Shown here: positions 11,399 to 59,516 of the stretch, piece after piece
Layout: each line of letters begins with the position of its first letter
Numbering within the stretch: position 1 is the stretch's first letter
Assembly: GCA_029945195.1 (NCBI GenBank)
Contig: GCA_029945195.1_4117.1
Direction: 5' to 3' (one strand)
DNA: 64,000 bases
Source: a phage
The notes under the pieces: generated by a model
Seen by the model: the letters and a program-made list of their open reading frames with translations, nothing else
Database searches by the model: none
What the model was told of the DNA's origin: nothing
Made by a program: the position numbers and the translations under genes

Positions 11399-11421
11399 GA
11401 AAAATGAATTAAAAAAAAATG

Positions 11422-11543: not shown

Positions 11544-11604
11544 GTTCACATCAAGACAGCAAAGAGATTTACCTTTTAAACACACGGATGATTCATGAAG
11601 TAAC

Positions 11605-34087: not shown

Positions 34088-35577
34088 TCTGTGTCCTTAT
34101 GTATGCGATAAACAGTATTAGGTTTAACTGCGTCATGTAATGGAACTTTGTTATCACTATTTACAAACTGTGTAAGTGCTAAGTCTGCACCTTCCCACGG
34201 TTTTCTTCCACCATAATCAAAAATAACCCATGAATTCTTAGTTGCATTGAATTCCCATAACGTAACTGGAGTATAATCGGTGCGATAGAAATAGTCACCA
34301 TCTACTGCATCAGTTGGGAACATATTTCCTTCAGGGACTGTACCTCGTGCTGGTGGAATTTTAGGACGATAATCTTGTTGCGAATCAATATTACCATATA
34401 CACAATTGGACGTGAATGGTTCATTGACATAAGTTACCTTTGGTTCCCCCCACTTGTCATCATTATACTGATAAATGTGTGGTTCTTTATAAAAAATACA
34501 AAAATCTTCCACATCTTCTGGTGGAACATCACTGGTAGTATATTCTACATCACAATTTAACCATTTTTTAGCACTTTTATCATATTGATACAACGTATAA
34601 CCTGTCACATCTGCGTCATTTTCTTTAAAGAAGAAGTCACCATCCATTGGTTTTCTGGGAAAGATGGTTCCACGCTTGACTTCCACAGAAATCCATGTAT
34701 CATTAACAAACTCTTTGAGTACTGGGTATGTTTTTTTCAAAAAATACATTCCATCGGCAGGTTCTTCTGGAAAATCATAACCGTTAAGCATATATTTGGA
34801 TAAATCTACTGTATCAGGTCGATCATCATACAAATGTTCATTTGTATAATGAATATAGGGTACTTCATCATCAGCTTGCATGATGATACGGTTCATGATA
34901 TCCATTTCATTGCCATAGTTACTGTTTTCCGACGAACCATCATCGGTATTTCCATTACCATTATTAGGGTCATCTGGATTATCAGGATAATTATTGTTAC
35001 CGAGTAAATCGGAGTACTCAGGTGAGTCGGTTAGCGGTTTAACTCTAAGTTTATAAATGTGATGTTGCCACGTAACCGAGTATCCCTCAGATGTACGAAA
35101 TGCATCTTGGACGACATAGAAGCGGTTTAGACCTGTATCTTTACCCAATACATCAAAATCACGTAAATTTGGTAGTTCTATCACATCCCCTGGCATGATT
35201 TTTCTACCTAAACGCTGCATCATTGTATTATAATGGATTGTGATGTCCATAGTGTTGAAATTAAAGAACAATCCTGGGATTTTCAAGTCTGGAGTTGCTT
35301 CTTGAACTTGATAGACACAACTAAGTGTGATAGCTTCAAGGTTGTAGTTTCTGTTTGGTGTGTCACCAAAAATTAAATCGCCAATACTTGACACAACTGA
35401 TCCTGAAGATGTATAATCACCTCCATAGGATAAGTCAGTGTTGTCAGCAACTTGTTTTGGACCGACATATGCATAAAGCCACATGTCAACTCCACCAATG
35501 TTGTATTGTTCAGCAATGGCAGAATCAATGAACTTGTAATCATTGGTTCTCCCTTTTTTCCACATTCTATATGTCAT
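34084..35577 (-). CDS. hypothetical protein
   Basis: ORF track start at 35589 is a TTG; the ATG at 35577 (MTYRMWKKG...) has a GGAG RBS. Confidence 0.55.
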   Translation of the reverse strand: MTYRMWKKGRTNDYKFIDSAIAEQYNIGGVDMWLYAYVGPKQVADNTDLSYGGDYTSSGSVVSSIGDLIFGDTPNRNYNLEAITLSCVYQVQEATPDLKIPGLFFNFNTMDITIHYNTMMQRLGRKIMPGDVIELPNLRDFDVLGKDTGLNRFYVVQDAFRTSEGYSVTWQHHIYKLRVKPLTDSPEYSDLLGNNNYPDNPDDPNNGNGNTDDGSSENSNYGNEMDIMNRIIMQADDEVPYIHYTNEHLYDDRPDTVDLSKYMLNGYDFPEEPADGMYFLKKTYPVLKEFVNDTWISVEVKRGTIFPRKPMDGDFFFKENDADVTGYTLYQYDKSAKKWLNCDVEYTTSDVPPEDVEDFCIFYKEPHIYQYNDDKWGEPKVTYVNEPFTSNCVYGNIDSQQDYRPKIPPARGTVPEGNMFPTDAVDGDYFYRTDYTPVTLWEFNATKNSWVIFDYGGRKPWEGADLALTQFVNSDNKVPLHDAVKPNTVYRIHKDTE

Positions 35578-35619
35578 GTTTGTCTCCAAAATAAATCGGG
35601 TATATCTTTATTTACCTTG

Positions 35620-35647
35620 TAGACAAACCGTAAGAATGTGATATAAT
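35620..35647 (+). promoter_or_regulatory. sigma70-type promoter (TAGACA-N16-TATAAT, extended -10) upstream of the Clp-like ATPase gene
   Basis: Same gaatgtgatataat -10 context as the promoters at 11422 and 11516. Confidence 0.55.
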
Positions 35648-35687
35648 GTTTATTAATTAGAGTGACGTGAATCACATAGGAGAATAC

Positions 35688-37976
35688 ATGAATCTTACTC
35701 AATTGTTCAAAAAAAGCGACGAACTGGCAACATCTCTAGGTCATACATTCTTGACTATTGACCACGTAAGTGCCACAGTACTGACTATTGATAGCATCAA
35801 GAACGTATTTGAAGATATGAACATTGATGCAGACAAACTGCACAACCGCCTGATGAACTATCTTAAAAATACAACAGTTCCACATGCACCAAAAAGTGTT
35901 AAAGATGAAGACGCGAATCGCACTTCACTTCTAGTGAATCGCGTTGTACATGAGCTTTCTAAAAAATCAGTTATTGAACAACTAAAAAGTGATGATTTTT
36001 CGATTGATGCATATTTTGTTCTATTCGAATGTCTGTCTTTCCCTAACACAGCACTAGAAGCTGCGTTAAAAGAAGAAGGTGTTAGCTGTACTGAAGCTGC
36101 ACGTGCATTACAGAAACACGTTGAGTCACTTGATAAGGGTATCAACTTACAAAGTATTAATGACGAACCGATTGGAGATAAAAAAGTGGCCCAACAGCAG
36201 CAATCATCTAAACAAAAAGGTTTGGAAGACTATACAACGAATCTAACTGCTCTTGCAAAAGAAGGCAAACTAGATCCTATGATTGGTCGCCAGAAAGAAT
36301 TGTCTGCATTGATTGAGACTCTTGCTCGCAAAACCAAAAAGAATGCTATTCTTACTGGTGAAGCTGGTGTAGGTAAAACACAAATCATCGACGGTCTTGC
36401 ACAAGCTATTGCTGACGGCAACGTACCTGAACACCTGAAAGACGTTGAAATTCTTTCACTAAATGTTGGTGCATTGACTGCTGGTACTAAGTATCGTGGT
36501 GAGTTTGAAGAACGCATCGACAATTTGCTAAAAGAACTAAAGAAACGTGAAAATACTATTGTTTTCATTGATGAAATTCATATTATGGTTGGGGCTGGTT
36601 CCGCAAGTAATGGTTCTATGGACATGAGCAATATGCTTAAGCCAGCACTTTCACGTGGTGAGATTCGTGTAATTGGTGCAACAACATATGATGAATATCG
36701 TAAAAATATCGAGAAAGATAGTGCATTAACTCGTCGTTTTATGAAAATTGATGTAGTTGAGCCGTCAATTGATGAAACTCGTGCAATTGTTAATGGTTTG
36801 AAACCAACTTATGAAAAATTCCATAATGTTGAGTTCACAACTGATGCAATGGATGCTGTAATTTCTCTCAGTGATAAATTCCTGAAGAATAAGCACTTCC
36901 CAGATAAAGCAATTGATCTAATGGACGCTGCTGCTGCAAAAGTTCGTTCACGTGACAACAATAGTAAGCTTATTACTGCCAATTTGATTCAAGAAGTTGT
37001 TGCTGGTATTGCCAATTTGGATATCAACGTGGTTGCATGTACTGAAAGTGATCGTATGCGTAATCTACCAGATGCACTACGCTCACGTGTATACGGTCAA
37101 GAGGAAGCTATTCAAAAATTAGTTGATAACGTGATGGTAGCTCGTGCAGGACTGCGTGACAAATCTAGTGTTCAGGGTGCATTTATGTTTGTTGGACCAT
37201 CTGGTACTGGTAAAACAGAAATTACCAAAGCATTAGCAGATGCAACTGGTGCGGAACTGATTCGCTTTGATATGTCAGAATTTTCTCAAGAACATACTGT
37301 TTCTAAACTAATTGGTTCACCTCCAGGTTATGTTGGGCATGATTCTGGTAACGGTTTACTGTTGGATAAAATTGAGCAGTTCCCTAATGCAGTACTGTTA
37401 CTTGATGAAATTGAAAAAGCAGATCGTAAAGTACTACTAACCTTCCTACAGGTTTTGGATGAAGGTCGCCTGACTGGTTCACAAGGTAAAACTGTATATT
37501 TTAATAACGTAACTGTTATTATGACTACAAACCTTGGTGCGGCAGATTCAACGAAGCGTAGCATTGGTATGAGCGGTAGTGATACTGCACAAGACAAGGC
37601 AATTAAAGCATTCTTGCCACCAGAGTTTATTAACCGTATTGATAGTATCGTTACGTTTAAAGACCTAAGCAGTGAAGCTATTGACAGCATCATTGATAAG
37701 TTCATGGGCAGTTTGAATGAACAAGTCAAAGACCGCAATGTTAAAGTTACATTGACAAAAGCTGCACGTGAATGGCTTGCGAAAAATGGGGTAAAAGTTG
37801 GTATGGGTGCACGTCCAATGAAACGTACCATTGAACAAAACATTCGTGTACCACTAGCTAAAGAAATGTTGTGTGGTTCACTTGTGAATGGTGGTAACAT
37901 TACATTTGATGTTATTGATGGTAAAATCGGTATTAAACCGAAACGTTCCAAAGCTGTAGATAAAGCACTGGCATAA
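35688..37976 (+). CDS. ClpA-type double-AAA+ unfoldase (Hsp100 family)
   Basis: ORF track start at 35667 is a GTG; the ATG at 35688 has an AGGAG RBS. D1 Walker A GEAGVGKT and Walker B IVFIDEIH; D2 Walker A GPSGTGKT and Walker [10 protein letters not shown]; sensor GARPMKR; no ClpB-type middle domain; IGM tripeptide at the position of the ClpA ClpP-docking loop. Confidence 0.8.
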
Positions 37977-38005
37977 AAAAAGAAAAGGAGAGCAATATGC
38001 TCTCC
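37975..38005. terminator. bidirectional rho-independent terminator
   Basis: ggagagca-ata-tgctctcc hairpin flanked by an A-tract and a T-tract; separates the convergent Clp-like and giant genes. Confidence 0.75.
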
Positions 38006-38012
38006 TTTTTTA

Positions 38013-41000
38013 TTACTTAACTAATAATATATTTTTAATATCATTACCACTAACTTGTAGACTATCAGTGTATACTGAAAGATCTATAGTGTAACTATTT
38101 TGTGTGTAACGTTTTAACATATCATAATTACCTAAATTAATTCCATTGAATGAATATGTAGTATTAAGTTTAAAATCATGTTCCGCACTATACATTACTC
38201 CACGGAGTAAATTATTTGCATTTCTAACTTCAACTTTTTCATATCCAATCGATATAATATCATTCATGTTCGCGGCAGAACCGGATAAAACATTATTTCT
38301 AATACTATAAGGACTTATTGATTTAGGTTGAGAAACATAGGTTGTATTTTCTTCACTAATGGTTGTGATGTTAGTAACCGTGCCACCAACAACACCGATG
38401 TACATACCGTCAACCATTGGATATCCATAAACCCATATACCTTCATTATTTCTAAACGGTTGAATAACACTTGAATCATATTCAATAACGTTGATTTCTA
38501 AACTATCAGTCATTTTAGTTCTTGCTAATTCACTAAGAACTCCCGCACCAGTAATTGGTAGGTTATAACCGTTGTCGATAGTAATTCCATCAACATCAAA
38601 TATTTCGTTAGAGATTATCCAAACGTCAACGTCATCTGGTGTTATTCCGTCATTGTACTTACCACCATTTAAAGTAGTATCGTAGAAAACATCATAATTA
38701 ATTACATCAATTGTGTAATTTCTATTTTGTTCGTACAATTTGATACCATTCTTCACAAATTCTGGGTCAGCAAATGTTCTAACACGAACAATGTTCAATG
38801 CAAGAGGCTGTACTGGCTCATTTTGTTGTGCAAGAGTGATATTATCATAACGGAGAACTGCACCAGTACTCTCATCAATCAATTCAATCGTTTCTTTACC
38901 TGTATTTCTTACAGTGAATAGGATCGGAGTTGTATTGTTTTTGATGTTAGATACACGCAAGATTGTTTCCCATGTGTGATTTTGATATCTCACGAAATCT
39001 TCACCATCAGGAGTGAAAATCATCACCTTATCACCATCAGATAGGTCATTGTCAACTATTTCTGCTTCAGTTAAGCTATTAATAGATCTCACACGATAGA
39101 AATATTTTTCATCAAACTTCGATGTTGTTTTATTAATATCATTTTCAATCTTAGCATATGAAGGAATACTAACAATTGCTTCTGTATGTTTATATGGATT
39201 GATAATTGCCATACCTTCAGTTTGATATCTGCTGTTATCACGTAATTGTACAAGAGATACATTGTCAAACCCATATCCATCAACTGTAAATCTAATTTGA
39301 CCAACATCACGCCCAGAAGGGTTTATGTCAGATATATCCACAATATAAGGATCAACTTCATCATCTTTAACTTCCCATTTTATTGAAGAAGTTTGAGATT
39401 CTAATGCTAGGTTATCAAATGCATTCATATCATTGAAGTACTTAGCTTCAGTAATACTATCAAGTATATATTGATAATCTGAATACATTGGGTTATTTTG
39501 ATCTAGTGGTAAATCATCTAGATTTATTTCAGCTAGTTCAATCATTTCACCATTTGTGATAAAATAATCTTCCATGAAATCATCAATACTTTGTTCATCA
39601 GGTATACTTTGATATACACCGTTAACATTTAAGTAAACATATTTTCGTGGAATCATTGTAATTGCATAGATATCAATTGGGGTTTTACTAAGAATCTCTT
39701 CAGCTTTTTCGTACTTATCAGTAGCGTCTTTGTCGAATAACCCTCTCATACCTGCTAATACGTGAATAGCATCAGTATAGAAACGGGTATCACCACCGAC
39801 TTCATCATAACGATAAACATATACACCATACTCAACTTCAAGTTTAACTTTTACTTCATAGTCTGATGCGTCAGGATTTTTATCTTTAATTAATGAAATA
39901 TATTTTTGATACAGTTCACTGCTTATTTCAAAATATCCATAGTTATAATCATTACTAGAAGAAAAGCCTAATGGAAGTCTAGTACTAGGATTGTCATTAT
40001 AAGTAAGTCCACTAAATCCACAACCAACTTCATCGTGAATTTTCTCATCACTTATATCTTTATAAAGTTTCAAACGGTTTGCCAATGTGTTATACTGAAC
40101 ATATTGTCTAAGGTCAGTAAACATATCGTTCTGCGTTGATTCTTTATAAACACGCTCCAATGTAGCAGTAAATTCATCAGTTGCTTCTAAATCTTCCGCA
40201 TGGTCTTTATACCACTGGTTAACACCATATGCTGTTCCTAATGTTACATCCAATTCTGGATAGTAGATTTGCATTTGATAAGCAATAAGAAGATCGAAAG
40301 TTTCTTCACTATATTCTGGGAAAGAATATATATAACGTTGTAATTCATAGTTACTAACAGCATCCTTTTCATTGGATTGATATTTGTTATTAACACTTAC
40401 TAATTCATTTATGCTTGCCAAATCTGCATTTGGTTTACATTGAATGTTATCGTAATGCATAATAATATCAATTTCTTGGAATCTTCTATTTGGTGTAATG
40501 AAATCACTTGGTAGTGAACCTACCTGTTCCCATTTTTGGGTAATTTCATTAAATTGAGCGTACTCATAATCCCAAATATCTTTTTCAGTTTTGACCCAAG
40601 AACCGTCAACGAAAATATATCCATTAGGATCTAAATCATTACACAGACCTTTTATTAAATCATCATCAGATGTCTTTTGCTCTATTTGTGAACGAATTTT
40701 AGTTCTATAAGGTTTAACTTCTTCAAAATATTCAACAATTTGATTAATCAAATTATCGTTTGAATAGTTTTGAACTAATGATTGTTCCAAACCAACAATA
40801 TAGATATATGATGTTTTAAATACCCAATCCACAACACTTTGTTCAACATGTACATATTTGACCATATCAAAAACAATTTCGCTTTGATGTAAATCGAAAG
40901 AATTTTTGAGTAAAGCTAGTGCTTTACGAACGTTGATTTCACGATTGCTTAGTGAACCATTATCATTATGAACACTATAATCTGCGTAAAGCATATCATT

Positions 41001-44000
41001 GAGTTCAACTGTACTGTTTTCACGACCAATCGCTTTCCAATAAATTGAATCGCGTGATTGTGATTTAATATACAATGTCCAAATGTTTTCACTATCGGTA
41101 ACTCTGATAATATCGCCAACTTGGTAGTTTTTAGTATTAGCATCTTCTAAGCTTGACTCTTGAGTATAAGTCGTGTTACTATCATACCCAACATCATACC
41201 AATCAGCATATGACCAGTACTGAGTCATGTCCAATGAAGTTCCCAGTGATTCAACATAATCAGATTGTTTAATCATTTTATGTTGACCCTCACCTTTGTT
41301 CTCTAACGTTATAGTAACAACACTACCCGCGTTTGCTGGACTATTCATTAACTGAATATATCCATTTTCGTCGAAGTGAATAAAATAAACAGCACTAGAA
41401 GTTAATGGATTTGGTAGATATCCACTAGTACTTAAAATAACAGCGTCATTTTCTTTAAATTTATCACTTTCAACTGCAATAACTAATTCATTATTGTAAG
41501 ACAATACACGGAAAGAAACTTCATTCGGATTAACTTCAGTGGTTTTAACATTAAACACATCTTCCATAACAACACTATTAGTGGTTATGTTTTGTGACCT
41601 ATAATAATTATTAGCACTTTCTACAAAGTTTCTACGAGCTTCTATAACATTTTGGAACCAAGTTTTGTTTGAACCTAAACCGTTATCAACATCTGGATAT
41701 AATAAATTAATCACAGAACCTGATTCAGTTGTTTCTTGACCAATTAGTGAGTTCCACATTGAATCCCAAATTAGTGGGTTAAAGTTATAGCTGTCACCTT
41801 CTTTACATAGTTGATACTGGTCATGTTTAACAACTTCAGTACTATCCATGTAATAAGAAACAGTTAAAATACTGGTATCATCATTCACTTTAAATTGCAT
41901 ATTACTAAGAATAAACGAGTTTTCATTGATTGGAGCGAACCAAGGAATGTTTAGCTGTGTTGGATCTTTAATAATACGAGCAATGTCAGTACATGATTTT
42001 GTTCTGGTATGTAGTGGTGGTACATAAATTGTATCACGTACCCAGAAATAGTATTTTGTCACATAACTATCAGTTGAACTATCATATTCCAAAAATGTAC
42101 TATAATTATCTTCAAGTGCAGTTCCACTTGGTAGATACATAGTATTATTTTTGTTTTTCTTAGCAACATCTTTACAGTATTTGTCCCAGTTATATGGCTC
42201 AACTGGTGAACAAACCCACTCTAACACATCAATTGTACTATGTGGTAATAAACGACCCCAGTTGTAACGTTTGTATTCATTGGTTGCATCAATGTCAACA
42301 TTACCGTCTGCGTCATAAATTGCACGAGTATAATCCAAATAAAATGCAGTGCTAGTGTTCCACCATACTTGACCAACTTTATCAGCACCCCAAGCCTGGA
42401 TTAACTCTCCATTACTATTATACTGTGCAGGATCAACTGGTGAAGTATATGTTACGTTTTGCATAGCCGCACCTGGAATAACACCATTAATTGGGTCATA
42501 AACGTTTAGATATAGCTCAGTAATGTTAGTACGTTCATCATATGTCGTTGGACGATCAAATAAAGTACTTTGTGGTGCTTTAAAACTATATTTCTTGTCA
42601 ATGTAAGCTTGACGTTCATCAGTACTGGCAAAACGTGATACATAACGATACAAACGTGGACGTGTATCTGGATCAGTAAATTCAATATCAATAGAAGTGT
42701 CAAATGGAACTACCATAACTTTAGGATCAGAACCAGCAGTATAATATTGACTTTCTACTGTTAAAGTATCTGGCATAAAGTTAGTTTCATCAACAAAATA
42801 ATAATAATCACCATCTTCAAGTGGTACATTATCAGTTAAAGTTACTTTACAAAATTGTTCAGCATACACATCGGTATTTTCAATAGGTGTTATAGAAACC
42901 ATTTGCACATTAGTATCAACCAATTCAAAAATGTTCCACAAACCATTACCGTCTTTAAACATCCACACAGATTCAGGATTTTCACCTTTACCATTAGTAT
43001 AAGTTATGCGGTCATTATATGCAGTACTGAAATCTTTTGTAGTGTAAGATACTTCATCCAATGTTACTGGACCAATATCTGGAAGTTGAATGTTTTCACT
43101 TCTTCCACTACGCATCGGGAATGAGAACTTACCATTTGGACGTGTAATCCAACGAGGATCTTTACCTTGTTCGCCGAAGTATACAATATTGTTTCCATTT
43201 CCATTTGAAGTAGCGTTTACATCAAAAGATACCATTTGTGGTTGTTGTTTAAATTGGTCATTGATTAGTTTAAATTGAAGGTTTTTCTTACCATCAATAT
43301 TACCATATGTACCAATTTTAAATGCCCATTCTTGTAATGCTTTATATTCATCAGTGTCATATGATTTAGAAACACGAAGTACACGTTCTAAAACTTGGTT
43401 AGTACCTTTATCGTGAATGAATCCTTTATAGAAATCAACACGACTAACATCACTACTAATCATACGCTGTAGATAATCACGAGATTGATAACCAATCAAA
43501 TGGTTTGACAACTCTTGTAATTGTACATCACTTACTGGAGTTTCACTATCATAATAATGTTGGAAATCCGACACTAATTTTTCAAATGATGGTAGTGTTC
43601 CAGCTTCCAAGATAATAAATCCAGGAGCTTGTAGGCGACCAGTCCATGAACCAGTAATATATCCATACATTTTAATTAGTTCTTGAATAGAACCATATGT
43701 TGGCTGATAAATGTAATCACCAAAAATAGTTTTATCATCAAAAATAACAGCATGTTCATATGAACACAAACTTAAACGAATCAATGCAATGCGTTTATTA
43801 GATTCTAAAGTTCTAACAGTGAAGATATTTCCAATACGAGAAGTTTCAATTTCATATTGGCGAATACCTTGGTTATTATCATCAAGTAATGACCATACAC
43901 CACCATTATTTTGCGTAATAGATTGTACTGAACCAAAGTCTGCCCCAAATTTAGCGTTTGCAGCACTTGGGGTACAAGAAATAAATTCACCAGTTACTAG

Positions 44001-47000
44001 AGAATTCTGACTCCAGATCACGAAATCTTTAGCAATAGTGTTCCAATCTTGTTGAGCACCACTATCATTTACATCTTCAAAAATCCAACCATGTTCTTTA
44101 AGATATTCACCATATCCACAAATAAAAGTATAAACTTCTTGGTAACTATTGAAAACTTTACCATATTCAATTGAAGCTTCAGACTTCCATTCATTATAAT
44201 GAACAACATTACGGTTTTCCAATTTAAGAGTTACTTTTCTACCATTTTTTACGGGAAGTTTATATTTAAATTTAGCACCAACTAGATCATATCCATCAAT
44301 CTGATATGCACTACCATTCCAAGTAATTTTGATCGCACTCATTTGCTCATCACGGATATTATTAGAACGAACAAGACCAATGGTTTGGTTTTCTTGTGAA
44401 ATAAGACCGAAAGATTTAGCATTGAATGTTAGCTGATCTGCTTTAGTAAATCCTCCAATTTTATGACCAACATTTATATAAGAAGAACGAACTACATCCC
44501 CATACTTGGTGGTAATATTTTTATTTTGATACATCAAATGGTCACTTACAAACATTTGATAACCAATGGTTCTTGTGCTATTTTCACCATGAACTACTGT
44601 ATTTTTATCAAAATTAATACGCTTACGTGTATCACCATAAAGGAATTGTGAACCATCAGTGAATACTTCTTTTAAGTTATCATTGCGGGTATCCCAGAAA
44701 TAGTTAGCAAATTGTGCTGGTTTAGCTTTATACAAAAGCATCATTTGGTCATATGCAAACAATGTAGTGTTCATGTATGTAAATTCCATGTCACCCATAT
44801 CACCATATGTCCAAGGTTCTGCTCTATGATTTAAAGATCCAGACACTAAACCTAAAATTTCAGGTGCAATATATTCAACCACACAAATATCAATACCAGA
44901 AGATGTTTTATTTCCAGTTTTTGTAATTTTGAATGGCTGTACACCAAATCTTTTATATTTGTCATATTGACCACGACGATCACCAAATAAAATAGTTCCA
45001 GTACTGCTATCGCCAATAGTTCCGTCAATATCCCAAAGACCACTAGGAACTAAATCACCTTGCTCATTCATAACAAGTGCTTCATATACATATACAACAT
45101 CACTATCACGTTCACCAACTTGAACAGCCGTTGGTTCGTATTCTTGGTTCCACCAAGTTGGACGTTGTGTAAAGCCAAACATTTCCCACGGATGGGTAGC
45201 TGGGCGATATGTACCATATTGGTCAGTGTAAATGGCACGCCATGAACCACGTGCAGGAATTTCAGTACTTTGACCATTAACTACATAATAAGTGCCAGTA
45301 TAGTTCCAAGTTCTCCAATTGTTAGGATCATAATCATGTGTACTATTACTGATACCATTAGTTGCGGTGAAGTTAATGTATCCACGTAGTAATAATGTTT
45401 GTTTCTCTTCAGCACTATATTCAGTTTTAGTGAAATATGGTGTAGGGAAAAGGTCATCACTATTCAATACTGGTACGTAATCAACATCTTTGAATTTATT
45501 ATCAATACTATTAAAAATTCTATTTTCTAATTCATATACAACATCATCCATTTTATCAACACCATTGATAACACGGTATGCTTTGGAAATAATACCAGTA
45601 TGACTGATGTTATAACAGCTTGGTTTACTACCAGCAGTGAGGAATGTCGCTTTTTCTGGTACATATGCTTGAAGAATACCTAAGAACTGTGGTGTTGGTG
45701 GTATAAATGCACGAATGAATCCAGAAGTACTTCCAACATTATCATAATAGAATGGGAATGAACTATCACGTCCCATATTAATAGTAGTTAAAATTGCATC
45801 AACAATGTTTGCAGCACTATTTTGTAAAAAGTCTGATGGATTTTCATCATACATACGAAGCATTTGTGTATTAAATTTATTAATGAATCTAAAATATTCA
45901 GATTGCATAAACATAGTTGCTTCAAATAAATCAATATCTTCATTTGCAGTATGTGCCATCAATGGAAGCATAGATGCTTCATTTTGGATAATTTTAGTAC
46001 CTACGCCATTATTAACCAATCCTTTAGCCAAACGTTCTTCATAGTCATTGAAATCATCAGAAGAACCACGTGTAATGTTCTTTTGAATAATATCCTGAAA
46101 ATGTAAAGTGTAGTCACCTTGGTTAATGTATATAATATTGGAATTGTATGGGTTATTTTGTAAGTTAATTGGAACTTCATATGCACCTAATTCTTTATTA
46201 GGAGTTACAGTACTGCTATAAGTTCTAATTTGAATAACTGAATCTTCATCCAAATCTACAGTGCTATCTAAGGTGATACTTTGAACTTGACCTTTTGATA
46301 CATTTTTGGTATATTTTGATACATCAACACCATCAACAACAACTTCAATTATGTCAGAATCATTATCTAAAACTTTTTGTGCTAATTCGAATGTGTGGTC
46401 ATATTTTACAATCTGAACACCATCACCAGTGATTGGATGCCAGTCTAGATAAGTTTCGCGGTCTGCTTTATAGTACTGATAGGTTCTATCAACTTCAATA
46501 ACATATGCATACATACCATCAACTGGTTCTTTAAAAACTTCCATATCATAAACAGTACTGAATACACGATACATATCAGTACGTTTGACTTGTGGAGTTT
46601 GTTTTACAAATTGTTTAGAGTACTCTTCTGAACGAACCCAATCGGTTTGAAGATTCATTTCATTATTTTCATCAATAATGTTATAATAGTATAAACCATC
46701 AATTTCAACTTCTTTTCCAAGATGGTCATAGGTATAACGTTGGGATTGTAAAAAGTTTTCATAAATGTAATAATTATAATCACCAAGTTCAATGTTATAT
46801 CCATATACACTATCAGTTGCATAGTTGTAATTTATTTTAAAACCAAACAACTCTGAACCTTTAAAGTTACTTGATGGATATGTAGTACTGTTGTCAAGTT
46901 TGATACCATTACGATCATAAAGTTGGAATTTAGGGAATACGTTAACACTAGTTTTTGATTGTGCACGAACCCACAAAGAACCATTCCAGTACATAGAACT

Positions 47001-47984
47001 ATTACCATACTCATTACCTTTAGTGATTAGAACAACATCACCATCTTGAGGTTCACCACTTGGGCGTGATTCGGTTTCTTCTTCTGGATCTAGTGCTAAA
47101 CCATAAACACGAGTACCATCTTGCATTTTTTTCACATATACATTATAAATTCTATTGTTTTCACCATTGTTACCAATACTGGTGAATAGAATACGCATTC
47201 CATCTTGCGGAATAATACCATCAATACGTATACCACTATTAATATCTTTTTGAACGATATCTTCAGGTTTAATAATATCAGAGAACAGATCAACAGTTCC
47301 ACGGAATTTTGTACCGTAGTTAATTAGCTCAATATTTTTATTATATTCAATAATTGGTGCACGTGCACGAATAAAACGTGAATCTTGCATTAATTCTTCA
47401 GTTAATATTGAGCCATCTTCTAATGTTTCACCTAAAGTATACCAAAAGTTTTGTAGTGACCATGTATTACCATTAAGTGCTCCACGTTCCATTACAATGT
47501 AATCAGGTGAAGTAATATTATAAGAGTTTTTAGTATCCCAAAGATATGAGCTAAAATTGTTCATTTTATTTGGGTTAATAGCTGGAGTCCATGCATAAAA
47601 CTTACCGTTGAACAAACGGCTTTCATTATCGGTTAGTGCTCCATAATGATTCATGTATCCAACTAGATCATCATAAAATTGAATTGAACGAATTGTCGAA
47701 TCATCATTTTTTGAGACGTAAGCAGTGGACAACTGATAAAGTTGACGTGCTACAGTACTTTCATGTAAGAAGATATTACCAGCAGCGGCAGGAGAACCCA
47801 TATCACCAATATAGCCGTCAACTAATTCGTTTTCAGCCGGATTAAACCATTGTTGAATAACATCATCACTGACTTTTTGAATATCTTCTAAGCCTTGCAT
47901 CCACTCAGGCAATCTTTTAATAAAAAGCTTCTTCTGTACTGCTTCAGCCATCTGTGTAGGTTGAAACTTAAAATTATTAGTCAT
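38013..47984 (-). CDS. giant virion protein (~3,320 aa), probably baseplate or fibre-associated
   Basis: Uninterrupted frame of ~10 kb; the ATG at 47984 has a GGAG RBS (ORF track ATG at 48014 lacks one); sits directly downstream of the gp6-like and gp25-like genes; no motif recognised by eye. Confidence 0.6.
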   Translation of the reverse strand: MTNNFKFQPTQMAEAVQKKLFIKRLPEWMQGLEDIQKVSDDVIQQWFNPAENELVDGYIGDMGSPAAAGNIFLHESTVARQLYQLSTAYVSKNDDSTIRSIQFYDDLVGYMNHYGALTDNESRLFNGKFYAWTPAINPNKMNNFSSYLWDTKNSYNITSPDYIVMERGALNGNTWSLQNFWYTLGETLEDGSILTEELMQDSRFIRARAPIIEYNKNIELINYGTKFRGTVDLFSDIIKPEDIVQKDINSGIRIDGIIPQDGMRILFTSIGNNGENNRIYNVYVKKMQDGTRVYGLALDPEEETESRPSGEPQDGDVVLITKGNEYGNSSMYWNGSLWVRAQSKTSVNVFPKFQLYDRNGIKLDNSTTYPSSNFKGSELFGFKINYNYATDSVYGYNIELGDYNYYIYENFLQSQRYTYDHLGKEVEIDGLYYYNIIDENNEMNLQTDWVRSEEYSKQFVKQTPQVKRTDMYRVFSTVYDMEVFKEPVDGMYAYVIEVDRTYQYYKADRETYLDWHPITGDGVQIVKYDHTFELAQKVLDNDSDIIEVVVDGVDVSKYTKNVSKGQVQSITLDSTVDLDEDSVIQIRTYSSTVTPNKELGAYEVPINLQNNPYNSNIIYINQGDYTLHFQDIIQKNITRGSSDDFNDYEERLAKGLVNNGVGTKIIQNEASMLPLMAHTANEDIDLFEATMFMQSEYFRFINKFNTQMLRMYDENPSDFLQNSAANIVDAILTTINMGRDSSFPFYYDNVGSTSGFIRAFIPPTPQFLGILQAYVPEKATFLTAGSKPSCYNISHTGIISKAYRVINGVDKMDDVVYELENRIFNSIDNKFKDVDYVPVLNSDDLFPTPYFTKTEYSAEEKQTLLLRGYINFTATNGISNSTHDYDPNNWRTWNYTGTYYVVNGQSTEIPARGSWRAIYTDQYGTYRPATHPWEMFGFTQRPTWWNQEYEPTAVQVGERDSDVVYVYEALVMNEQGDLVPSGLWDIDGTIGDSSTGTILFGDRRGQYDKYKRFGVQPFKITKTGNKTSSGIDICVVEYIAPEILGLVSGSLNHRAEPWTYGDMGDMEFTYMNTTLFAYDQMMLLYKAKPAQFANYFWDTRNDNLKEVFTDGSQFLYGDTRKRINFDKNTVVHGENSTRTIGYQMFVSDHLMYQNKNITTKYGDVVRSSYINVGHKIGGFTKADQLTFNAKSFGLISQENQTIGLVRSNNIRDEQMSAIKITWNGSAYQIDGYDLVGAKFKYKLPVKNGRKVTLKLENRNVVHYNEWKSEASIEYGKVFNSYQEVYTFICGYGEYLKEHGWIFEDVNDSGAQQDWNTIAKDFVIWSQNSLVTGEFISCTPSAANAKFGADFGSVQSITQNNGGVWSLLDDNNQGIRQYEIETSRIGNIFTVRTLESNKRIALIRLSLCSYEHAVIFDDKTIFGDYIYQPTYGSIQELIKMYGYITGSWTGRLQAPGFIILEAGTLPSFEKLVSDFQHYYDSETPVSDVQLQELSNHLIGYQSRDYLQRMISSDVSRVDFYKGFIHDKGTNQVLERVLRVSKSYDTDEYKALQEWAFKIGTYGNIDGKKNLQFKLINDQFKQQPQMVSFDVNATSNGNGNNIVYFGEQGKDPRWITRPNGKFSFPMRSGRSENIQLPDIGPVTLDEVSYTTKDFSTAYNDRITYTNGKGENPESVWMFKDGNGLWNIFELVDTNVQMVSITPIENTDVYAEQFCKVTLTDNVPLEDGDYYYFVDETNFMPDTLTVESQYYTAGSDPKVMVVPFDTSIDIEFTDPDTRPRLYRYVSRFASTDERQAYIDKKYSFKAPQSTLFDRPTTYDERTNITELYLNVYDPINGVIPGAAMQNVTYTSPVDPAQYNSNGELIQAWGADKVGQVWWNTSTAFYLDYTRAIYDADGNVDIDATNEYKRYNWGRLLPHSTIDVLEWVCSPVEPYNWDKYCKDVAKKNKNNTMYLPSGTALEDNYSTFLEYDSSTDSYVTKYYFWVRDTIYVPPLHTRTKSCTDIARIIKDPTQLNIPWFAPINENSFILSNMQFKVNDDTSILTVSYYMDSTEVVKHDQYQLCKEGDSYNFNPLIWDSMWNSLIGQETTESGSVINLLYPDVDNGLGSNKTWFQNVIEARRNFVESANNYYRSQNITTNSVVMEDVFNVKTTEVNPNEVSFRVLSYNNELVIAVESDKFKENDAVILSTSGYLPNPLTSSAVYFIHFDENGYIQLMNSPANAGSVVTITLENKGEGQHKMIKQSDYVESLGTSLDMTQYWSYADWYDVGYDSNTTYTQESSLEDANTKNYQVGDIIRVTDSENIWTLYIKSQSRDSIYWKAIGRENSTVELNDMLYADYSVHNDNGSLSNREINVRKALALLKNSFDLHQSEIVFDMVKYVHVEQSVVDWVFKTSYIYIVGLEQSLVQNYSNDNLINQIVEYFEEVKPYRTKIRSQIEQKTSDDDLIKGLCNDLDPNGYIFVDGSWVKTEKDIWDYEYAQFNEITQKWEQVGSLPSDFITPNRRFQEIDIIMHYDNIQCKPNADLASINELVSVNNKYQSNEKDAVSNYELQRYIYSFPEYSEETFDLLIAYQMQIYYPELDVTLGTAYGVNQWYKDHAEDLEATDEFTATLERVYKESTQNDMFTDLRQYVQYNTLANRLKLYKDISDEKIHDEVGCGFSGLTYNDNPSTRLPLGFSSSNDYNYGYFEISSELYQKYISLIKDKNPDASDYEVKVKLEVEYGVYVYRYDEVGGDTRFYTDAIHVLAGMRGLFDKDATDKYEKAEEILSKTPIDIYAITMIPRKYVYLNVNGVYQSIPDEQSIDDFMEDYFITNGEMIELAEINLDDLPLDQNNPMYSDYQYILDSITEAKYFNDMNAFDNLALESQTSSIKWEVKDDEVDPYIVDISDINPSGRDVGQIRFTVDGYGFDNVSLVQLRDNSRYQTEGMAIINPYKHTEAIVSIPSYAKIENDINKTTSKFDEKYFYRVRSINSLTEAEIVDNDLSDGDKVMIFTPDGEDFVRYQNHTWETILRVSNIKNNTTPILFTVRNTGKETIELIDESTGAVLRYDNITLAQQNEPVQPLALNIVRVRTFADPEFVKNGIKLYEQNRNYTIDVINYDVFYDTTLNGGKYNDGITPDDVDVWIISNEIFDVDGITIDNGYNLPITGAGVLSELARTKMTDSLEINVIEYDSSVIQPFRNNEGIWVYGYPMVDGMYIGVVGGTVTNITTISEENTTYVSQPKSISPYSIRNNVLSGSAANMNDIISIGYEKVEVRNANNLLRGVMYSAEHDFKLNTTYSFNGINLGNYDMLKRYTQNSYTIDLSVYTDSLQVSGNDIKNILLVK

Positions 47985-48030
47985 TTTTGGACTCCATATA
48001 ATTCGTTCATTCATTTGATTTATTTATGAT

Positions 48031-48063: not shown

Positions 48064-51000
48064 TTAAGAACCGATATTAATATTACTTTTAGCTAGTGAG
48101 TTAACAATTTGAACATTTTCAACAGATGCAGTACTCAAGAATATTTGGTCTGAACGTGAAGGGATTTCAAATAGAGAACCAAATTTTGAATTTGGATTTT
48201 GTGCAACTATAACAATAGTACTAATATGTCTACCTAACTGTGAGTGTATGTAAGTACACAAATCAGTATAATAGAAACTTTCACCGAAATCCCAGTTATC
48301 AACATTGAAGTATTCATTAGTTAATGCTATGACATTTTGACGAATTTCATCATCACTCATTGTGCTGTTTGGTAATTTCACTACTTTAAAATCAGCTTTG
48401 TAATCTTCAGCAGCACTGTTTCCAAATAAAGGTAAGTACTCAGCACTATGCCAAATGATACTATCACTAATGACTATTTTTTGTTCAACATCTTTGAACA
48501 TATCTTTTAATTCAACCGATGTTGGTGGTTTAGGAATACTACCAACAGCATTATTTTTCAACCAAACGTCAACTTCAGTTTTATATGAATTGGTTAATAC
48601 ATACATATCAATTAAGTTTGTTCTACTAGGATCAATGCGATTGTCGTCAGGTGCATAGTGTTTCCAATGGAAGTCTATACTAGTACGTGCATTAGTTTTA
48701 ACAGTGTACTGTGAAGTAACATCTTTGTATCCATAATAATCTAGCTTCTGATTCTCGTCAGCATTAGTTCCCATGTTATTAATTGCACGATAAAAAGCCA
48801 ATTCAGGACTAACAGTGCCAGTATCATCGGAATAAGTTAAATTACTAATTAGTTGTCCCAAACGATCATTGTTATTGCCAACTGTTTGTTCAATAAAATA
48901 ATATTTACCATCATAGTTAAAACCAACTAAAAATCCAGAACCTTTACTATATAATCCACTCAATGTGGTTGAACGAATTGCGTTATTTCTAACAAATTCA
49001 GTTCTTTTATATGCATTCGGCTCTGCCAAAGCTTGTTCCATTGTATAAGACCACGATGAATCAAGAAGTGTGAAGGTATCATTTGGTAACGACAGTACTG
49101 ATATAGTGAAATCACTATTTTCCTGAAATACCAAAATACCACCATATTTTAATGCATCGGTTCCAGTCCAAGTAGGAACAATTTCTTTAAATTGGTTTGG
49201 TTCCAATGGTATACCATTACTATCTACTTTCCTAGATGTAACAATAACACGAGAACCATCTAGATAGCCATTCTCTTGTTGAATTGTGTCATAAATTTGA
49301 AAATCTATATTACTTGTCAACCCTGAATTACTACTACTAGTAGTGTTAGATGATAAAATTTCAATCTTATCACTTTGAACTGTACCAGTACTTATATCAG
49401 TAATTTTTTTAGATGATACAAAGTAAAATCTTACTTTTTCTCCACCCACAAAAATATATTCAATACCGTTAGCATCAAATTCCCAAGTTTCTGCTGTATA
49501 TTTTACATTTATTATAATTAAAACTTCATTACCATTATACACAATAGTATCGTCATTAGTACTTGCTTCGATTGGAACCCATGAAGTTGTTTCTTTATCA
49601 TGTACAATTACAAAATCGGTTTTTTTATCCAACATAGCAGAAATAGACTGAACTTCAACTGTGTTAAATCGAGTTCTATATGGTAATATGTACTCTATTG
49701 CTTGCATTCCACTAGGAACAGATGTGCTTAGTACATAAAAACCATTATCTAACACACTTACAACACTTGCCCATATCGTAGTACCAGAATTAGAAAATTT
49801 AATAAGAGTACCTACCTGATACGAACCATACACTGTTCCAGACGAACCCAAAATTCTGCCATATGTATTGGTTGTGTAATTTGAATTGTACACTGGAGTC
49901 CATGCTTGTTGTATTTCAATACCAATTGTATTGGATGGATACGCTTGATAACGTTGTATTACTGCATTTTCCCCAATCAATGGTTGAATATTGTCAATAA
50001 CAATACTAGCATTTGTTTTTGTAGTTGGGAGCAATAACGATCTATTAAATTGCGTGTTTTCTTGATATAATGCACCATCATCACTAAAAACGTCGGTATT
50101 CTGATACTTACCAGTAGGATCATTGATATCAATGAACCTTGATTGACCACTATAAATTCTATTAATAGCTTTAGATTTAAGTACTGTATTTCCTAAACTA
50201 AGTGGTGCTATATTATAATCTTCACCATTGACAAAACGGTTTTGGGTATAGTACATTTGTGGTGCACGTGCTTTAATCTGCTCAATAGTTTCAGCACTTT
50301 GTGCACGGTCGGACTCATATTGTAATGAAAAACGTATATCCAATGTACTAGATTCATAACTTGACTGTGTTTTTGTACGATATGTATATTTTACGCTTTT
50401 ATTTTGAATTTCAGAAGTTTTAATGTTATATGTTTTACCATTACTAACACGATACCATACACGGAACGTCCCACGGGGAACAACACCACTTCTTGAGTCT
50501 GGGTACTTAATTGTTATTTGGTCTTTATCACGAGTAGTAACAGCAAAAATTGTTTTTAATTGACGATTAACAGTGTTATATGCAATACTTTCCATTGATG
50601 GAACTTTTGTCCATTTGGTACGAACAATACCATCTTCATTTATTTCTTGAACCCATACATCAGTTTCGTTGATATTATCAACGTTAATATCTTGTATACG
50701 GTTCTCTTCACGGATAGCATATTGATAATCTTGATATGTTAATGTACCTTGTACGAAATATACAAAAAACCCAGTATTTGGTGAGCTAAATCCATTACCA
50801 TCATTTTGATAAACAATATATTTTTGCTCTTGTGGTTCTGGATGTCGTTCTTCAACACCAACAGACGTAATGTCAGGATTCACTACTTCAAATGTCATAG
50901 ATTCACCATTGACAGTTGCAATAAATGGAATACTGGGTGCTGTCATTGGGATGGTGTTCATTCGATATAGTTGACGGGAGACACCATTAACATCAATACG

Positions 51001-51525
51001 CTTGACTGGATTACCAAATTGGTTAGTACTGACAAATGAACTGTTCATTACTAGAATAAAGTTTTCATACCAGTTAGCATCCATCGGGTCATTCCAACGA
51101 ATAATTTTATCTTTTAATGATTCATTAAAACTATTACGAACATCTTGGTTTGTTTTAATTTCGGTTAATTTAGCAACTGCACGACCTGGATATGAGCGGC
51201 GTGGTGAGTAAGAAATCATTTTAGCTAGTTTTAGTACTGATGCACGACGAGTTGCAGTATCTAAAAAGTTTTCACGTGTGTTCAAATCCATACGAAATGC
51301 CAAGTTCTGACCTAGCATAGAAATCGTATCTAAAATAAAAATAAACTGGTCGTTTTCGATCCAGTCATTGAATGAGTCTGGGTAAGTTGCACGTAGATAA
51401 TCAATCATACTCTGACGGATAGTGTCGAAATCATAAGCTGTTAGATTGATTTTATAAAAACTTTCATATACTTGAGTCCAATCCTCACCAGCGTATAAAT
51501 TTGATTGCCTTTTTTGTTGTGACAT
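48064..51525 (-). CDS. baseplate wedge protein (gp6 / Baseplate_J-like)
   Basis: 1153 aa; position immediately after the gp25-like gene, plus size, suggests gp6; AAGGA RBS. Confidence 0.5.
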   Translation of the reverse strand: MSQQKRQSNLYAGEDWTQVYESFYKINLTAYDFDTIRQSMIDYLRATYPDSFNDWIENDQFIFILDTISMLGQNLAFRMDLNTRENFLDTATRRASVLKLAKMISYSPRRSYPGRAVAKLTEIKTNQDVRNSFNESLKDKIIRWNDPMDANWYENFILVMNSSFVSTNQFGNPVKRIDVNGVSRQLYRMNTIPMTAPSIPFIATVNGESMTFEVVNPDITSVGVEERHPEPQEQKYIVYQNDGNGFSSPNTGFFVYFVQGTLTYQDYQYAIREENRIQDINVDNINETDVWVQEINEDGIVRTKWTKVPSMESIAYNTVNRQLKTIFAVTTRDKDQITIKYPDSRSGVVPRGTFRVWYRVSNGKTYNIKTSEIQNKSVKYTYRTKTQSSYESSTLDIRFSLQYESDRAQSAETIEQIKARAPQMYYTQNRFVNGEDYNIAPLSLGNTVLKSKAINRIYSGQSRFIDINDPTGKYQNTDVFSDDGALYQENTQFNRSLLLPTTKTNASIVIDNIQPLIGENAVIQRYQAYPSNTIGIEIQQAWTPVYNSNYTTNTYGRILGSSGTVYGSYQVGTLIKFSNSGTTIWASVVSVLDNGFYVLSTSVPSGMQAIEYILPYRTRFNTVEVQSISAMLDKKTDFVIVHDKETTSWVPIEASTNDDTIVYNGNEVLIIINVKYTAETWEFDANGIEYIFVGGEKVRFYFVSSKKITDISTGTVQSDKIEILSSNTTSSSNSGLTSNIDFQIYDTIQQENGYLDGSRVIVTSRKVDSNGIPLEPNQFKEIVPTWTGTDALKYGGILVFQENSDFTISVLSLPNDTFTLLDSSWSYTMEQALAEPNAYKRTEFVRNNAIRSTTLSGLYSKGSGFLVGFNYDGKYYFIEQTVGNNNDRLGQLISNLTYSDDTGTVSPELAFYRAINNMGTNADENQKLDYYGYKDVTSQYTVKTNARTSIDFHWKHYAPDDNRIDPSRTNLIDMYVLTNSYKTEVDVWLKNNAVGSIPKPPTSVELKDMFKDVEQKIVISDSIIWHSAEYLPLFGNSAAEDYKADFKVVKLPNSTMSDDEIRQNVIALTNEYFNVDNWDFGESFYYTDLCTYIHSQLGRHISTIVIVAQNPNSKFGSLFEIPSRSDQIFLSTASVENVQIVNSLAKSNINIGS

Positions 51526-51591
51526 AATTTATTCCTTTAAATCAGTAAAGTACTAGTTCAGTACTGGGAATTATATATAGAAATATTTATT

Positions 51592-51620
51592 CAAAAAGAA
51601 AAGCACTCCGAAGAGTGCTT
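51592..51620 (-). terminator. UUCG-tetraloop hairpin terminator
   Basis: On the minus strand: aagcacuc-UUCG-gagugcuu followed by uucuuuuug. Confidence 0.55.
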
Positions 51621-51626
51621 TTATAA

Positions 51627-52022
51627 TTATAAAGACGAAACTGAATATGTTGCCATTCGGTTATTACTTCTAGCATCAAATACAATAGTAAGTTCTTCTA
51701 ATGCATCTAATACTACATACTCTAATACGATGTTCATTTGATAACCATATTCTATTCTTGAAATTTGCAATTTCTTGAGATTCAATCTTGGATCTAAGCT
51801 AATTATTCTACGGGCATCTGCTTCTAAAAGGTTGATAGTATTATAACCTTCTAGTTCAAATAACAAATCCCATGCAATAAAACCATAGTCCGCATCAAAT
51901 GCTCTTTCGCCTTTTTTTGTGTTAAAATGATTCATTAAATCTTGACGAACCAGTTCACTATCATACAATGTTTCGGTTCTACCCACAACAGGAGTATGAA
52001 ATCCTTTAAAAACAACTGCCAT
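51627..52022 (-). CDS. baseplate wedge protein (gp25-like)
   Basis: 131 aa; KKGERAFDADYGFIAWDLLFE resembles the conserved gp25/GPW core (T4 gp25 GSRPFDPEFGCDLSDQLFE, from memory). Confidence 0.65.
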   Translation of the reverse strand: MAVVFKGFHTPVVGRTETLYDSELVRQDLMNHFNTKKGERAFDADYGFIAWDLLFELEGYNTINLLEADARRIISLDPRLNLKKLQISRIEYGYQMNIVLEYVVLDALEELTIVFDARSNNRMATYSVSSL

Positions 52023-52036
52023 TGATTATTCCTTTA

Positions 52037-52525
52037 TTATACGGATTCAACGATACGTGCCATCTTTTCCGCTCTTGAAGTGGTTTGTTTATACCAAGTA
52101 CTATCACGCATTTCTTTACCAGCAGTTTTGTAATCACCCTTACCCAAAGCAGTGAGTGCTTTTTTGAATTTCAAAACTTTGGTTTTGCCCATTTGGAATA
52201 CCATTAACCATAATACACGTTGTACTTGGACTGGTGCGGTCATACCAAATTGTTCATAAATTGATTTTGCATCATTGTACGCAGTTTGAGCATCTTTAAG
52301 AAGAAGTTGGTCAGCTTGTGATTCAGTTAGTCCATTTTTGAAGTTTTCACCTGGAAGAACTAGATGACCATAACCAATAGTATCAAGACCTAAGCTGTCT
52401 TTATATACCCAAAACTTATCATTTTTAAAATAACCAAGTTTTTTCTGGTATGCAATTGTACCTTCAAATTCTTTTACTTCTTTGAAAAATTGCTCATCTG
52501 TATTTTTAATTTCCCATTTACTCAT
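52037..52525 (-). CDS. T4-lysozyme-like (GH24) endolysin
   Basis: 162 aa; EFEGT...LDTIGYGH catalytic region; MVFQMGKTKVLKFK and WYKQTTSRAEKMARIV match T4 lysozyme blocks; close paralog of the C-terminal domain of the hub protein. Confidence 0.85.
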   Translation of the reverse strand: MSKWEIKNTDEQFFKEVKEFEGTIAYQKKLGYFKNDKFWVYKDSLGLDTIGYGHLVLPGENFKNGLTESQADQLLLKDAQTAYNDAKSIYEQFGMTAPVQVQRVLWLMVFQMGKTKVLKFKKALTALGKGDYKTAGKEMRDSTWYKQTTSRAEKMARIVESV

Positions 52526-52561
52526 AAAGATATCCTCGTTTTATTTATAGTGCTAAAATAT

Positions 52562-58676: not shown

Positions 58677-59516
58677 ATGACAAATAGGCCAAAGCGTAAA
58701 AAGTATCTCAATAATGCTGATTTACTTCGTGAAATACAAAAAAGTAAGATTTCATACTGCTGGTTATTAGACAAATCATATAGTATGTATGATTATATTG
58801 TTTTTCATGAGTCAGAAATTACTGCTGAGTTACTTGAAAAAGCCAAAGCAGCACGAATCAAACGACTAAACAATGAAATGCTTGATAGTATTCGTGAAAA
58901 GGAAAGTATGAGTGCTAAAAAAGCTAAAGAATATGCAGATGAAAATAATTTAGTTATCACTGATGTTCCAATCGATGAAGTTGTTATTCGTGTTATCACT
59001 GATGAACATATTCCACCCGACACTAGAGTTAACTTTGAACCATTCAAGCATTACATTGTAGATAATGAAGGAATTCTCTATGAAGTATGTCGTTCTCATT
59101 GGAAAGGAGATCTTGAAACTGGTGAATTCAGTACTGTTCATGGTAAAATTACAAATGAACTAGGGAAGATGTTCATTAAACTTGCTGAGGAAATCTCTCA
59201 TAAATCTAATTACAGAAACTATACATACTTAGATGAAATGATGGGTGATGCAAGAATACAATTAGTTAAAAACGCACTTCTCTTTAAAGAGAGCATTCTT
59301 TATAAAAAAGATAAACCAGCAGTTCAGCTAAATCCTTTCTCTTACTATACATCATTCGTAAACAATAGTTTTCGTTCTATATTGAATAGTGAGAAAAATG
59401 TTCGAAATATACGTGATGATTTACTTGAAATGCATGGCTTTACGCCATCACATACACGTCAAATTGAAATTGAATTGAACATGATTGAAAGGAAAAATGA
59501 AGATGGCTCTGTTTGA
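58677..59516 (+). CDS. late-transcription sigma factor (T4 gp55-like)
   Basis: 279 aa; N-terminal K.KYLNNADLLREIQKSK and the NPFSYYTSFVNNSFRSILNSEKNV block resemble T4 gp55 (from memory); longer than T4 gp55. Confidence 0.6.
   Translation: MTNRPKRKKYLNNADLLREIQKSKISYCWLLDKSYSMYDYIVFHESEITAELLEKAKAARIKRLNNEMLDSIREKESMSAKKAKEYADENNLVITDVPIDEVVIRVITDEHIPPDTRVNFEPFKHYIVDNEGILYEVCRSHWKGDLETGEFSTVHGKITNELGKMFIKLAEEISHKSNYRNYTYLDEMMGDARIQLVKNALLFKESILYKKDKPAVQLNPFSYYTSFVNNSFRSILNSEKNVRNIRDDLLEMHGFTPSHTRQIEIELNMIERKNEDGSV

Follow-up and report, generated by a model that had tools for sequence, protein, structure and literature searches.

A ClpA-type unfoldase gene of an Asteriusvirus phage and its possible partnership with a phage-encoded ClpP and a ClpS-domain protein

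The stretch of phage DNA analysed here (contig GCA_029945195.1_4117.1 of assembly GCA_029945195.1; all 64,000 nucleotides of it are called the window below) carries a clpA-like gene on its plus strand, at 35688-37976, which encodes 762 amino acids and a stop codon. The product is an intact and apparently active unfoldase of the ClpA type. In our judgement the chances are about even that this unfoldase serves a ClpP encoded by the phage itself, with a phage ClpS-domain protein as adaptor. The phage ClpA would act as a hexameric unfoldase, transcribed separately from its neighbours by way of a sigma-70-type promoter. A flexible loop in its second ATPase ring (D2), with an IGM tip, would plug into the clefts of a ClpP ring, most likely that of the phage's own ClpP, and unfolded proteins would be fed into the protease chamber. 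The phage ClpS-domain protein would dock on the N-domain of ClpA as substrate selector, and the resulting protease would degrade chosen host or phage proteins during infection. From the comparisons below we infer the physical pairing, the choice of partner, the timing and the substrates of the phage ClpA.

The window was described in an earlier note as phage DNA, and nucleotide identity bears this out. The clpA region is 99.0% identical to that of Salmonella phage SD-15_S21 and 98.6-98.7% identical to PBECO4, 121Q, slurp01 and others, and all of its near-identical matches are Asteriusvirus genomes of about 350 kb. By these matches the window comes from an Asteriusvirus, a Rak2-like jumbo coliphage. 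In the list of open reading frames (ORFs) for the window, the long plus-strand frame runs from 35667 to 37976 and opens at a GTG, which would lengthen the product by 7 amino acids. The true start is likely the ATG at 35688, because a ribosome-binding site AGGAG, read from the sequence at 35678-35682 (plus strand), stands five bases upstream and the annotated coding sequence of phage Sharanji begins at the same ATG. Motif positions given below refer to the 762-residue protein, and the alignment with Escherichia coli ClpA is numbered on the 769-residue translation from the GTG. The GC content is 0.389 across 36001-38000, where clpA lies, versus 0.32-0.36 in the adjoining 2-kb blocks, which fits either a gene acquired from cells or a sequence under strong constraint. 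Antisense ORFs of 95, 112 and 207 amino acids within clpA were judged to be mechanical by-products.

The protein has two AAA+ modules, each with a Walker A motif, a Walker B motif, a pore loop and an Arg finger, as expected of ClpA. The core of the first ring, D1 (36357-36581, plus strand), contains Walker A GEAGVGKT at residues 224-231, the pore loop KYRG at 268-271 and Walker B FIDEIH at 293-298. In the D2 core (37194-37418, plus strand) the corresponding motifs are GPSGTGKT (503-510), GYVG (547-550) and LLLDEIEK (570-577). The columns of both cores are invariant in the phage clade. An Arg finger, NRID, occupies residues 649-652. The sensor-2 motif GARPMKR (residues 707-713; 37806-37826, plus strand) is conserved in the clade as well, with G707, A708, R709, P710, M711 and R713 invariant and K712 nearly so. 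An N-terminal domain of the Clp_N type (residues 1-148; 35688-36131, plus strand) is delimited by Pfam, by an AlphaFold2 (AF2) model with eight helices and by alignment with the ClpA N-domain, which starts from ClpA residue 20. The double Clp_N repeat typical of ClpA is thus represented by eight helices at residues 3-148 of the model, but it is the weakest of the ClpA features found: Pfam matches a single repeat, with 21.7 bits against a cut-off of 20.7, and the mean predicted local distance difference test score (pLDDT) of 10-residue blocks ranges from 58 to 90 in this domain. Besides this weak Clp_N match, Pfam finds AAA, AAA_lid_9, AAA_2 and ClpB_D2-small.

PHROG 4871 ("ATP-dependent protease") matches the protein over its full length with 1037 bits. 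The best NCBIfam model is that of ClpA, TIGR02639, matched end to end with 755.6 bits, which is below its equivalog cut-off of 993.15; likewise, NF008263 gives 656.2 against a cut-off of 1350. Because the ClpA model scores best and provides the sole end-to-end match in a single stretch, yet stays below the equivalog cut-offs, the protein is by sequence a diverged member of the ClpA family and no equivalog. The best match among solved structures is E. coli ClpA (E=5.6e-181), aligned in one stretch (24-748 versus 20-734), whereas the alignments with ClpB, ClpC and Hsp104 break into two pieces. This shows that there is no coiled-coil middle domain. The AF2 model, built from a 70-sequence alignment (mean pLDDT 78.7), superposes on the ClpA protomers of ClpAP complexes; for 7uiv_E the template modelling score (TM-score), normalised to the target length, is 0.89 at 48% identity. 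These results agree with the earlier description of a two-ring Hsp100 protein with both Walker A/B sets, the GARPMKR sensor and no middle domain. An identity as a ClpB/Hsp104 disaggregase was considered and rejected, the middle domain being absent and a loop of the docking type present.

The gene belongs to a well-defined phage clade. In the protein database, identities to the phage protein run from 93% down to 53% (1545 to 845 bits) within the clade, after which the scores fall abruptly to 652 bits for other ClpA-like proteins. Across the approximately 114 clade members, which are 53-93% identical, the catalytic residues are invariant and the N-domain is conserved. By this pattern of conservation clpA is under purifying selection in the clade.

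The most informative part of the protein is the tip of the D2 loop. The earlier note had placed an IGM tripeptide at the ClpP-docking loop of ClpA and counted an IGM outside that loop, together with a lack of ClpP binding in vitro, against the idea. The tripeptide (I626-G627-M628; 37563-37571, plus strand) lies in a ten-residue segment that aligns column for column (HMMER) with RKSIGLIHQD of ClpA, IGM falling on I617-G618-L619, and therefore that objection does not arise. IGM also has the hydrophobic-Gly-hydrophobic pattern of D2 docking loops. In the AF2 model, residues 624-630 have a pLDDT below 50 and stand between a strand (608-614) and a helix (634-642), as expected for a flexible loop. 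In the cryo-electron microscopy structure of ClpAP, residues I617, G618, L619 and I620 of ClpA enter the ClpP cleft, and R614, H621 and Q622 provide polar contacts (bioRxiv 10.1101/820209). The contact residues beside the tripeptide are altered in the phage protein (I620S, H621G and Q622S), so that the loop reads SIGMSGS versus SIGLIHQ in E. coli ClpA.

Within the phage clade the D2 large domain is otherwise very conserved, and no other stretch of it varies as much as the docking loop (mean column entropy 1.54 versus 0.63). The tripeptides were counted in 66 clade sequences. With few exceptions the first position is hydrophobic, namely I (28), L (17), M (13) or V (6), the second is Gly in 56, and the third is most often M (29), followed by F (10), A (8) and V (6). 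The clade tripeptides include IGM, LGL, IGV, IGA, IGG, MNM, MSM, LGM, MGM, VGM, VGF and others. For comparison, we used 140 ClpA-like representatives at 50% identity, most of them probably cellular. Here x-G-F is found in 122 of the 140 and the central Gly in 139; IGM, IGL, LGL and IGV are present among these representatives too.

If the loop docks on ClpP, which ClpP does it meet? When E. coli ClpP is used as query, Asteriusvirus genomes prove to encode a homologue that matches it over the full length at about 36% identity. This phage ClpP has 231 amino acids and matches Pfam CLP_protease with 141 bits, above threshold; 121Q, PBECO4, SD-15_S21 and over 12 other genomes share it at 100% identity. 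In BF17 its gene is located at L002:5944-6639, and the protein is again identical to those of 121Q, PBECO4 and SD-15_S21. A phage ClpP with an intact Ser-His-Asp triad is present in all the Rak2-like genomes sampled, and the protein is lengthened at its C-terminus by some 20 conserved amino acids, GPRNEEGKYLVKRRGGVEEWV. The phage ClpS was harder to find: a query with E. coli ClpS missed the Asteriusvirus protein, and the homologues were found with the GAP32 protein as a stepping stone. The ClpS-domain protein (121Q gp48 and its homologues) occurs in 74 records, and its distribution over the genera follows that of ClpA and ClpP almost exactly. In 121Q it is encoded at L013:2489-3034 and has 181 amino acids, including an N-terminal extension of about 70; its Pfam ClpS score is 24.7 versus a cut-off of 23. 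Since clpP and the ClpS-domain gene co-occur with clpA in related genomes, the Rak2-like lineage carries a full ClpA-ClpP-ClpS set. As a side observation, the gp48 gene of 121Q directly follows a phage homologue of IF3, and the gene after it is annotated "DnaJ-like", with Pfam showing only a KTSC domain.

The clefts of nine phage ClpPs were compared with that of E. coli ClpP in an alignment whose reference was confirmed to be 100% identical. All nine retain the Ser-His-Asp triad. In the 121Q-type ClpP only 2 of the 12 hydrophobic cleft residues (Y62 and M92) are as in E. coli, versus 36% identity overall; the other positions show the changes L23M, L48V, F49W, A52S, Y60T, F82S, I90V, F112L, L114G and L189I. 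In addition, R192 is replaced by Pro in this ClpP, and the extension of about 20 residues in Rak2-like ClpPs comes after the C-terminal strand that helps to build the cleft. The E. coli interface tolerates little change. In E. coli ClpXP, the ClpP substitution R192K abolishes ClpX binding, and even the conservative substitutions I268L and F270L in the IGF loop of ClpX are severely defective (PMC7112951). Phage PA5oct has a canonical IGF loop together with a more canonical ClpP cleft.

These data bear on the proposal of the earlier note that the phage ClpA pairs with the ClpP of its host. In this alternative the phage ClpA would dock on host ClpP in competition with the ClpA and ClpX of the host, turning the host protease on new substrates. 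An I-G-hydrophobic core is kept at the correct position of the loop, tripeptides such as IGM, IGL, LGL and IGV also occur in ClpA-like representatives that are probably mostly cellular, and host ClpP is abundant. However, the phage supplies a ClpP of its own, the loop flanks that contact ClpP in E. coli are altered, and the E. coli interface copes poorly even with conservative changes, as described above. The variation of the tripeptide is a further argument. The hosts of Rak2-like phages belong for the most part to the Enterobacterales, among which ClpP is expected to be nearly identical. Host ClpP therefore cannot explain the wide variation of the tripeptide among these phages. We consider docking on host ClpP unlikely. 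Because the phages encode ClpP and ClpS, the loop flanks are altered, the tripeptide varies and the phage ClpP cleft is remodelled and lacks R192, phage ClpP is the likelier partner. Thus the ClpA-type structure and the docking loop of the earlier proposal stand, and the host as the source of ClpP gives way to the phage.

Taken further, the same observations may point to an orthogonal ClpA-ClpP-ClpS machine whose interface has drifted away from that of the host, so that phage ClpA and phage ClpP would bind each other and not host ClpP, ClpX or ClpA. The basis for this is the loop tip, IGM-S or a variant of it, on one side, and on the other a ClpP cleft without Y60, F82, L114 and R192 and with a C-terminal extension. 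We put this forward tentatively, as something possible rather than probable. If true, the phage would own a private protease, programmed through an adaptor, with which to take apart host or defence proteins. It would be a clear example of a phage importing and privatising cellular proteolysis, with unfoldase, peptidase and adaptor insulated from the host. Synthetic biology would also gain an orthogonal ClpAP pair of natural origin, and there would be an entry point to the host or defence proteins that jumbo phages destroy.

The transcription signals around clpA are in line with expression as a separate unit. A sigma-70-like promoter, TAGACA-16 nt-TATAAT, with a TG extension and the -10 box GTGATATAAT, is located at 35620-35647 on the plus strand, 41 bases 5' of the ATG, and matches 11 of the 12 consensus positions. 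The consensus score alone is weak, as 10 matches of at least 11/12 are found in the window versus about 6 expected. The box itself is more telling. There are four exact plus-strand copies of GTGATATAAT in the window, and its near-matches are enriched (23 versus 11.6 expected, a number reached in none of 100 shuffles). In BF17 the phage clpP is preceded by the same box, and in phage CBB the equivalent site before the clpA orthologue (62% protein identity) reads TGTGCTATAAT. The promoter call is thus supported by a -10 box that is shared with clpP and conserved in CBB; that clpA and clpP have an identical -10 box also speaks for the pairing of their products.

At the other end of the gene, just past 37976, a hairpin terminator of 12 pairs (37983-38009) separates clpA from the convergent gene of a 3333-amino-acid structural protein. 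It is flanked by T runs on both strands and is apparently bidirectional; the terminator scan scored it on the minus strand only, and its use on the plus strand was read from the sequence. A hairpin of unlike sequence occupies the equivalent place in CBB, and the record of phage UE-S1 annotates a terminator at the 3' end of clpA. A promoter and terminator of its own had been proposed for clpA earlier, and both were found, the hairpin lying just outside the end given for the gene. The genes flanking clpA are structural and lie on the opposite strand, and the window also encodes a gp55-like late sigma factor. Given these neighbours, this sigma factor and its own promoter and terminator, clpA is probably a transcription unit of its own, timed separately from the structural genes on either side, which are presumably late genes.

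Two other promoter observations are added here. A perfect 12/12 sigma-70 consensus, TTGACA-18-TATAAT, with TG before the -10 box, is found at 35388-35417 (plus strand) inside the opposite-strand gene of a 501-amino-acid structural protein. It points toward clpA from about 270 bp 5' of its start and could be a second promoter. Farther away, six promoter-like sites with 11 or 12 of 12 matches, one of them with a GTGATATAAT box, are clustered within about 1.2 kb at 10379-11545 (plus strand), which looks like an early promoter array.

Several observations weigh against the partnership with phage ClpP and ClpS. First, neither gene is in the window: searches of the window with E. coli ClpP, ClpS and ClpX (tblastn) found none of the three, apart from a weak AAA+ match between ClpX and the D2 of clpA, as was to be expected, and we infer the presence of ClpP and ClpS in the source phage from its 99%-identical relatives. 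Second, the three clp genes lie far apart in Asteriusvirus genomes, as in 121Q, where they are found at 34 kb (clpS), 214 kb (clpP) and 298 kb (clpA). Third, residue-level covariation of loop and cleft was not convincing in the nine paired phage genomes together with UE-S1 and WPEC5. The cleft positions diverge at approximately the rate of ClpP as a whole, and the number of cleft differences between SE_PL and 121Q is about that predicted from their overall ClpP identity. As this covariation signal is lacking, the case rests on the divergence of both sides of the interface. Fourth, tripeptides such as MNM, MSM, IGG and IGA in some subclades are a degenerate motif and could equally mean that docking is being lost. 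Finally, clpA sits inside the tail/baseplate module in Rak2-like and PA5oct-like phages, which is compatible with a role in assembly.

The last two points lead to a second alternative, in which the phage ClpA is an unfoldase or remodeller independent of ClpP, acting as an assembly chaperone for the 3333-amino-acid virion protein or for tail/baseplate parts, and the loop is a relic. In the window and in CBB alike, clpA keeps a conserved place, with tail-completion/structural genes on one side and the giant structural gene on the other. Similarly, clpA of PA5oct adjoins a large structural gene, and dnaJ adjoins clpA in PA5oct and Atu_ph07. A translocase or assembly role has been proposed by Iyer et al. 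(PMC7824862), in a comparative review that considers phage ClpA and ClpX as translocases or assembly aids and notes phage ClpP and ClpS separately. Nevertheless, clpA is on the opposite strand, with a sigma-70-type promoter and a terminator of its own, outside the transcription units of its neighbours. This alternative is also difficult to reconcile with a first tripeptide position that is hydrophobic in nearly all clade sequences and a central Gly that most of them keep, or with the co-occurrence of ClpP and ClpS with the phage ClpA. As a virion component, ClpA is absent from the mass-spectrometry list of CBB virions, which includes the products of both neighbouring genes, and it is unflagged in PA5oct too. 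We take this as no more than absence of evidence, and it is neutral for a chaperone. On balance, a ClpP-independent role seems unlikely to us.

A third alternative comes from database labels. RefSeq names the phage ClpP a "head maturation protease", and PHROG-derived labels agree, so that ClpA and ClpP might together form a head-maturation machinery. One ClpP peptide was indeed found in CBB virions, and the ClpP of PA5oct is flagged as detected by electrospray ionisation tandem mass spectrometry (ESI-MS/MS). Yet CBB has a separate T4 gp21-like prohead protease, CBB_255, encoded between the portal and major capsid genes. The phage clpP, moreover, is found among DNA ligase, phosphatase and deaminase genes, outside the head module, its product has full-length 36% identity to cellular ClpP, and ClpA was undetected in virions. 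We regard this role as very improbable, and it was rejected on the strength of the gp21-like protease in CBB and the non-structural neighbourhood of clpP. Because of the separate gp21-like protease, the RefSeq name is probably a mislabel derived from PHROG.

The gene as such is not new. Its orthologues are already named clpA or "ClpA-like protein" in many public records, and it is annotated in dozens of public phage genomes. Two papers, one of them the comparative review cited above, mention the clpA of Rak2-like phages, as a gene conserved in the group, and the searchable literature yielded genome-description remarks only and no functional study of the phage clp genes. Since the gene has been annotated and discussed before, the novelty of finding clpA is low. 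The sighting alone adds little, and the point of value is the interface that has diverged on both sides. The clpA orthologue of phage CRJP21 (OQ708376.1, 165997-168300) is labelled "putative virion protein and lysozyme murein", evidently an annotation error.

Several other genes of the window were noted. The 3333-amino-acid virion structural protein convergent with clpA is encoded at 38013-48014 (minus strand) and matches PHROG 10938 with 5791 bits; its orthologue CBB_236 was detected in CBB virions. Baseplate wedge and hub/lysozyme genes occupy 48064-55225. Among them, a gene for an 887-amino-acid protein (52562-55225, minus strand) matches the baseplate hub/lysozyme PHROG in full, and the adjacent 162-amino-acid ORF (52037-52525, minus strand) matches only the C-terminal lysozyme part of the same PHROG (profile positions 727-885) and may be a duplicated lysozyme domain. 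The gp55-like late sigma factor gene lies at 58677-59513 (plus strand); after it come genes for SbcD-like and SbcC-like nucleases and for endonuclease VII.

Among known systems, the phage protein is best compared with E. coli ClpA, the unfoldase of ClpAP(S) (PDB 1KSF, 6W1Z and 7UIV). Both have the same order of N-domain, D1 and D2 and no middle domain, and they share the KYRG and GYVG pore loops, the Arg fingers, sensor-2 and the placement of the docking loop, D1-D2 being about 48% identical when the structures are aligned. The phage N-domain is far more diverged from its E. coli counterpart than the ATPase rings, and the phage gene comes from a lytic jumbo phage, whose lineage also encodes a diverged ClpP and a long ClpS-domain protein. 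The ClpA-like genes of Rak2-like phages (121Q gp581, RaK2_00069, those of GAP32 and CBB_235; PHROG 4871) are the same gene, with the synteny, promoter box and terminator position seen here, and only the docking tripeptide differs between subclades. The PA5oct type (Wroclawvirus) is a more distant parallel, a jumbo phage with ClpA, ClpP and ClpS whose ClpA is about 41% identical to the phage protein described here and is likewise encoded beside a large structural gene. In PA5oct, clpS, ftsH, clpP, a chaperonin gene, dnaJ and clpA all lie inside 24 kb, the IGF loop is canonical, and the ClpP has a cleft of a more cellular type and no C-terminal extension.

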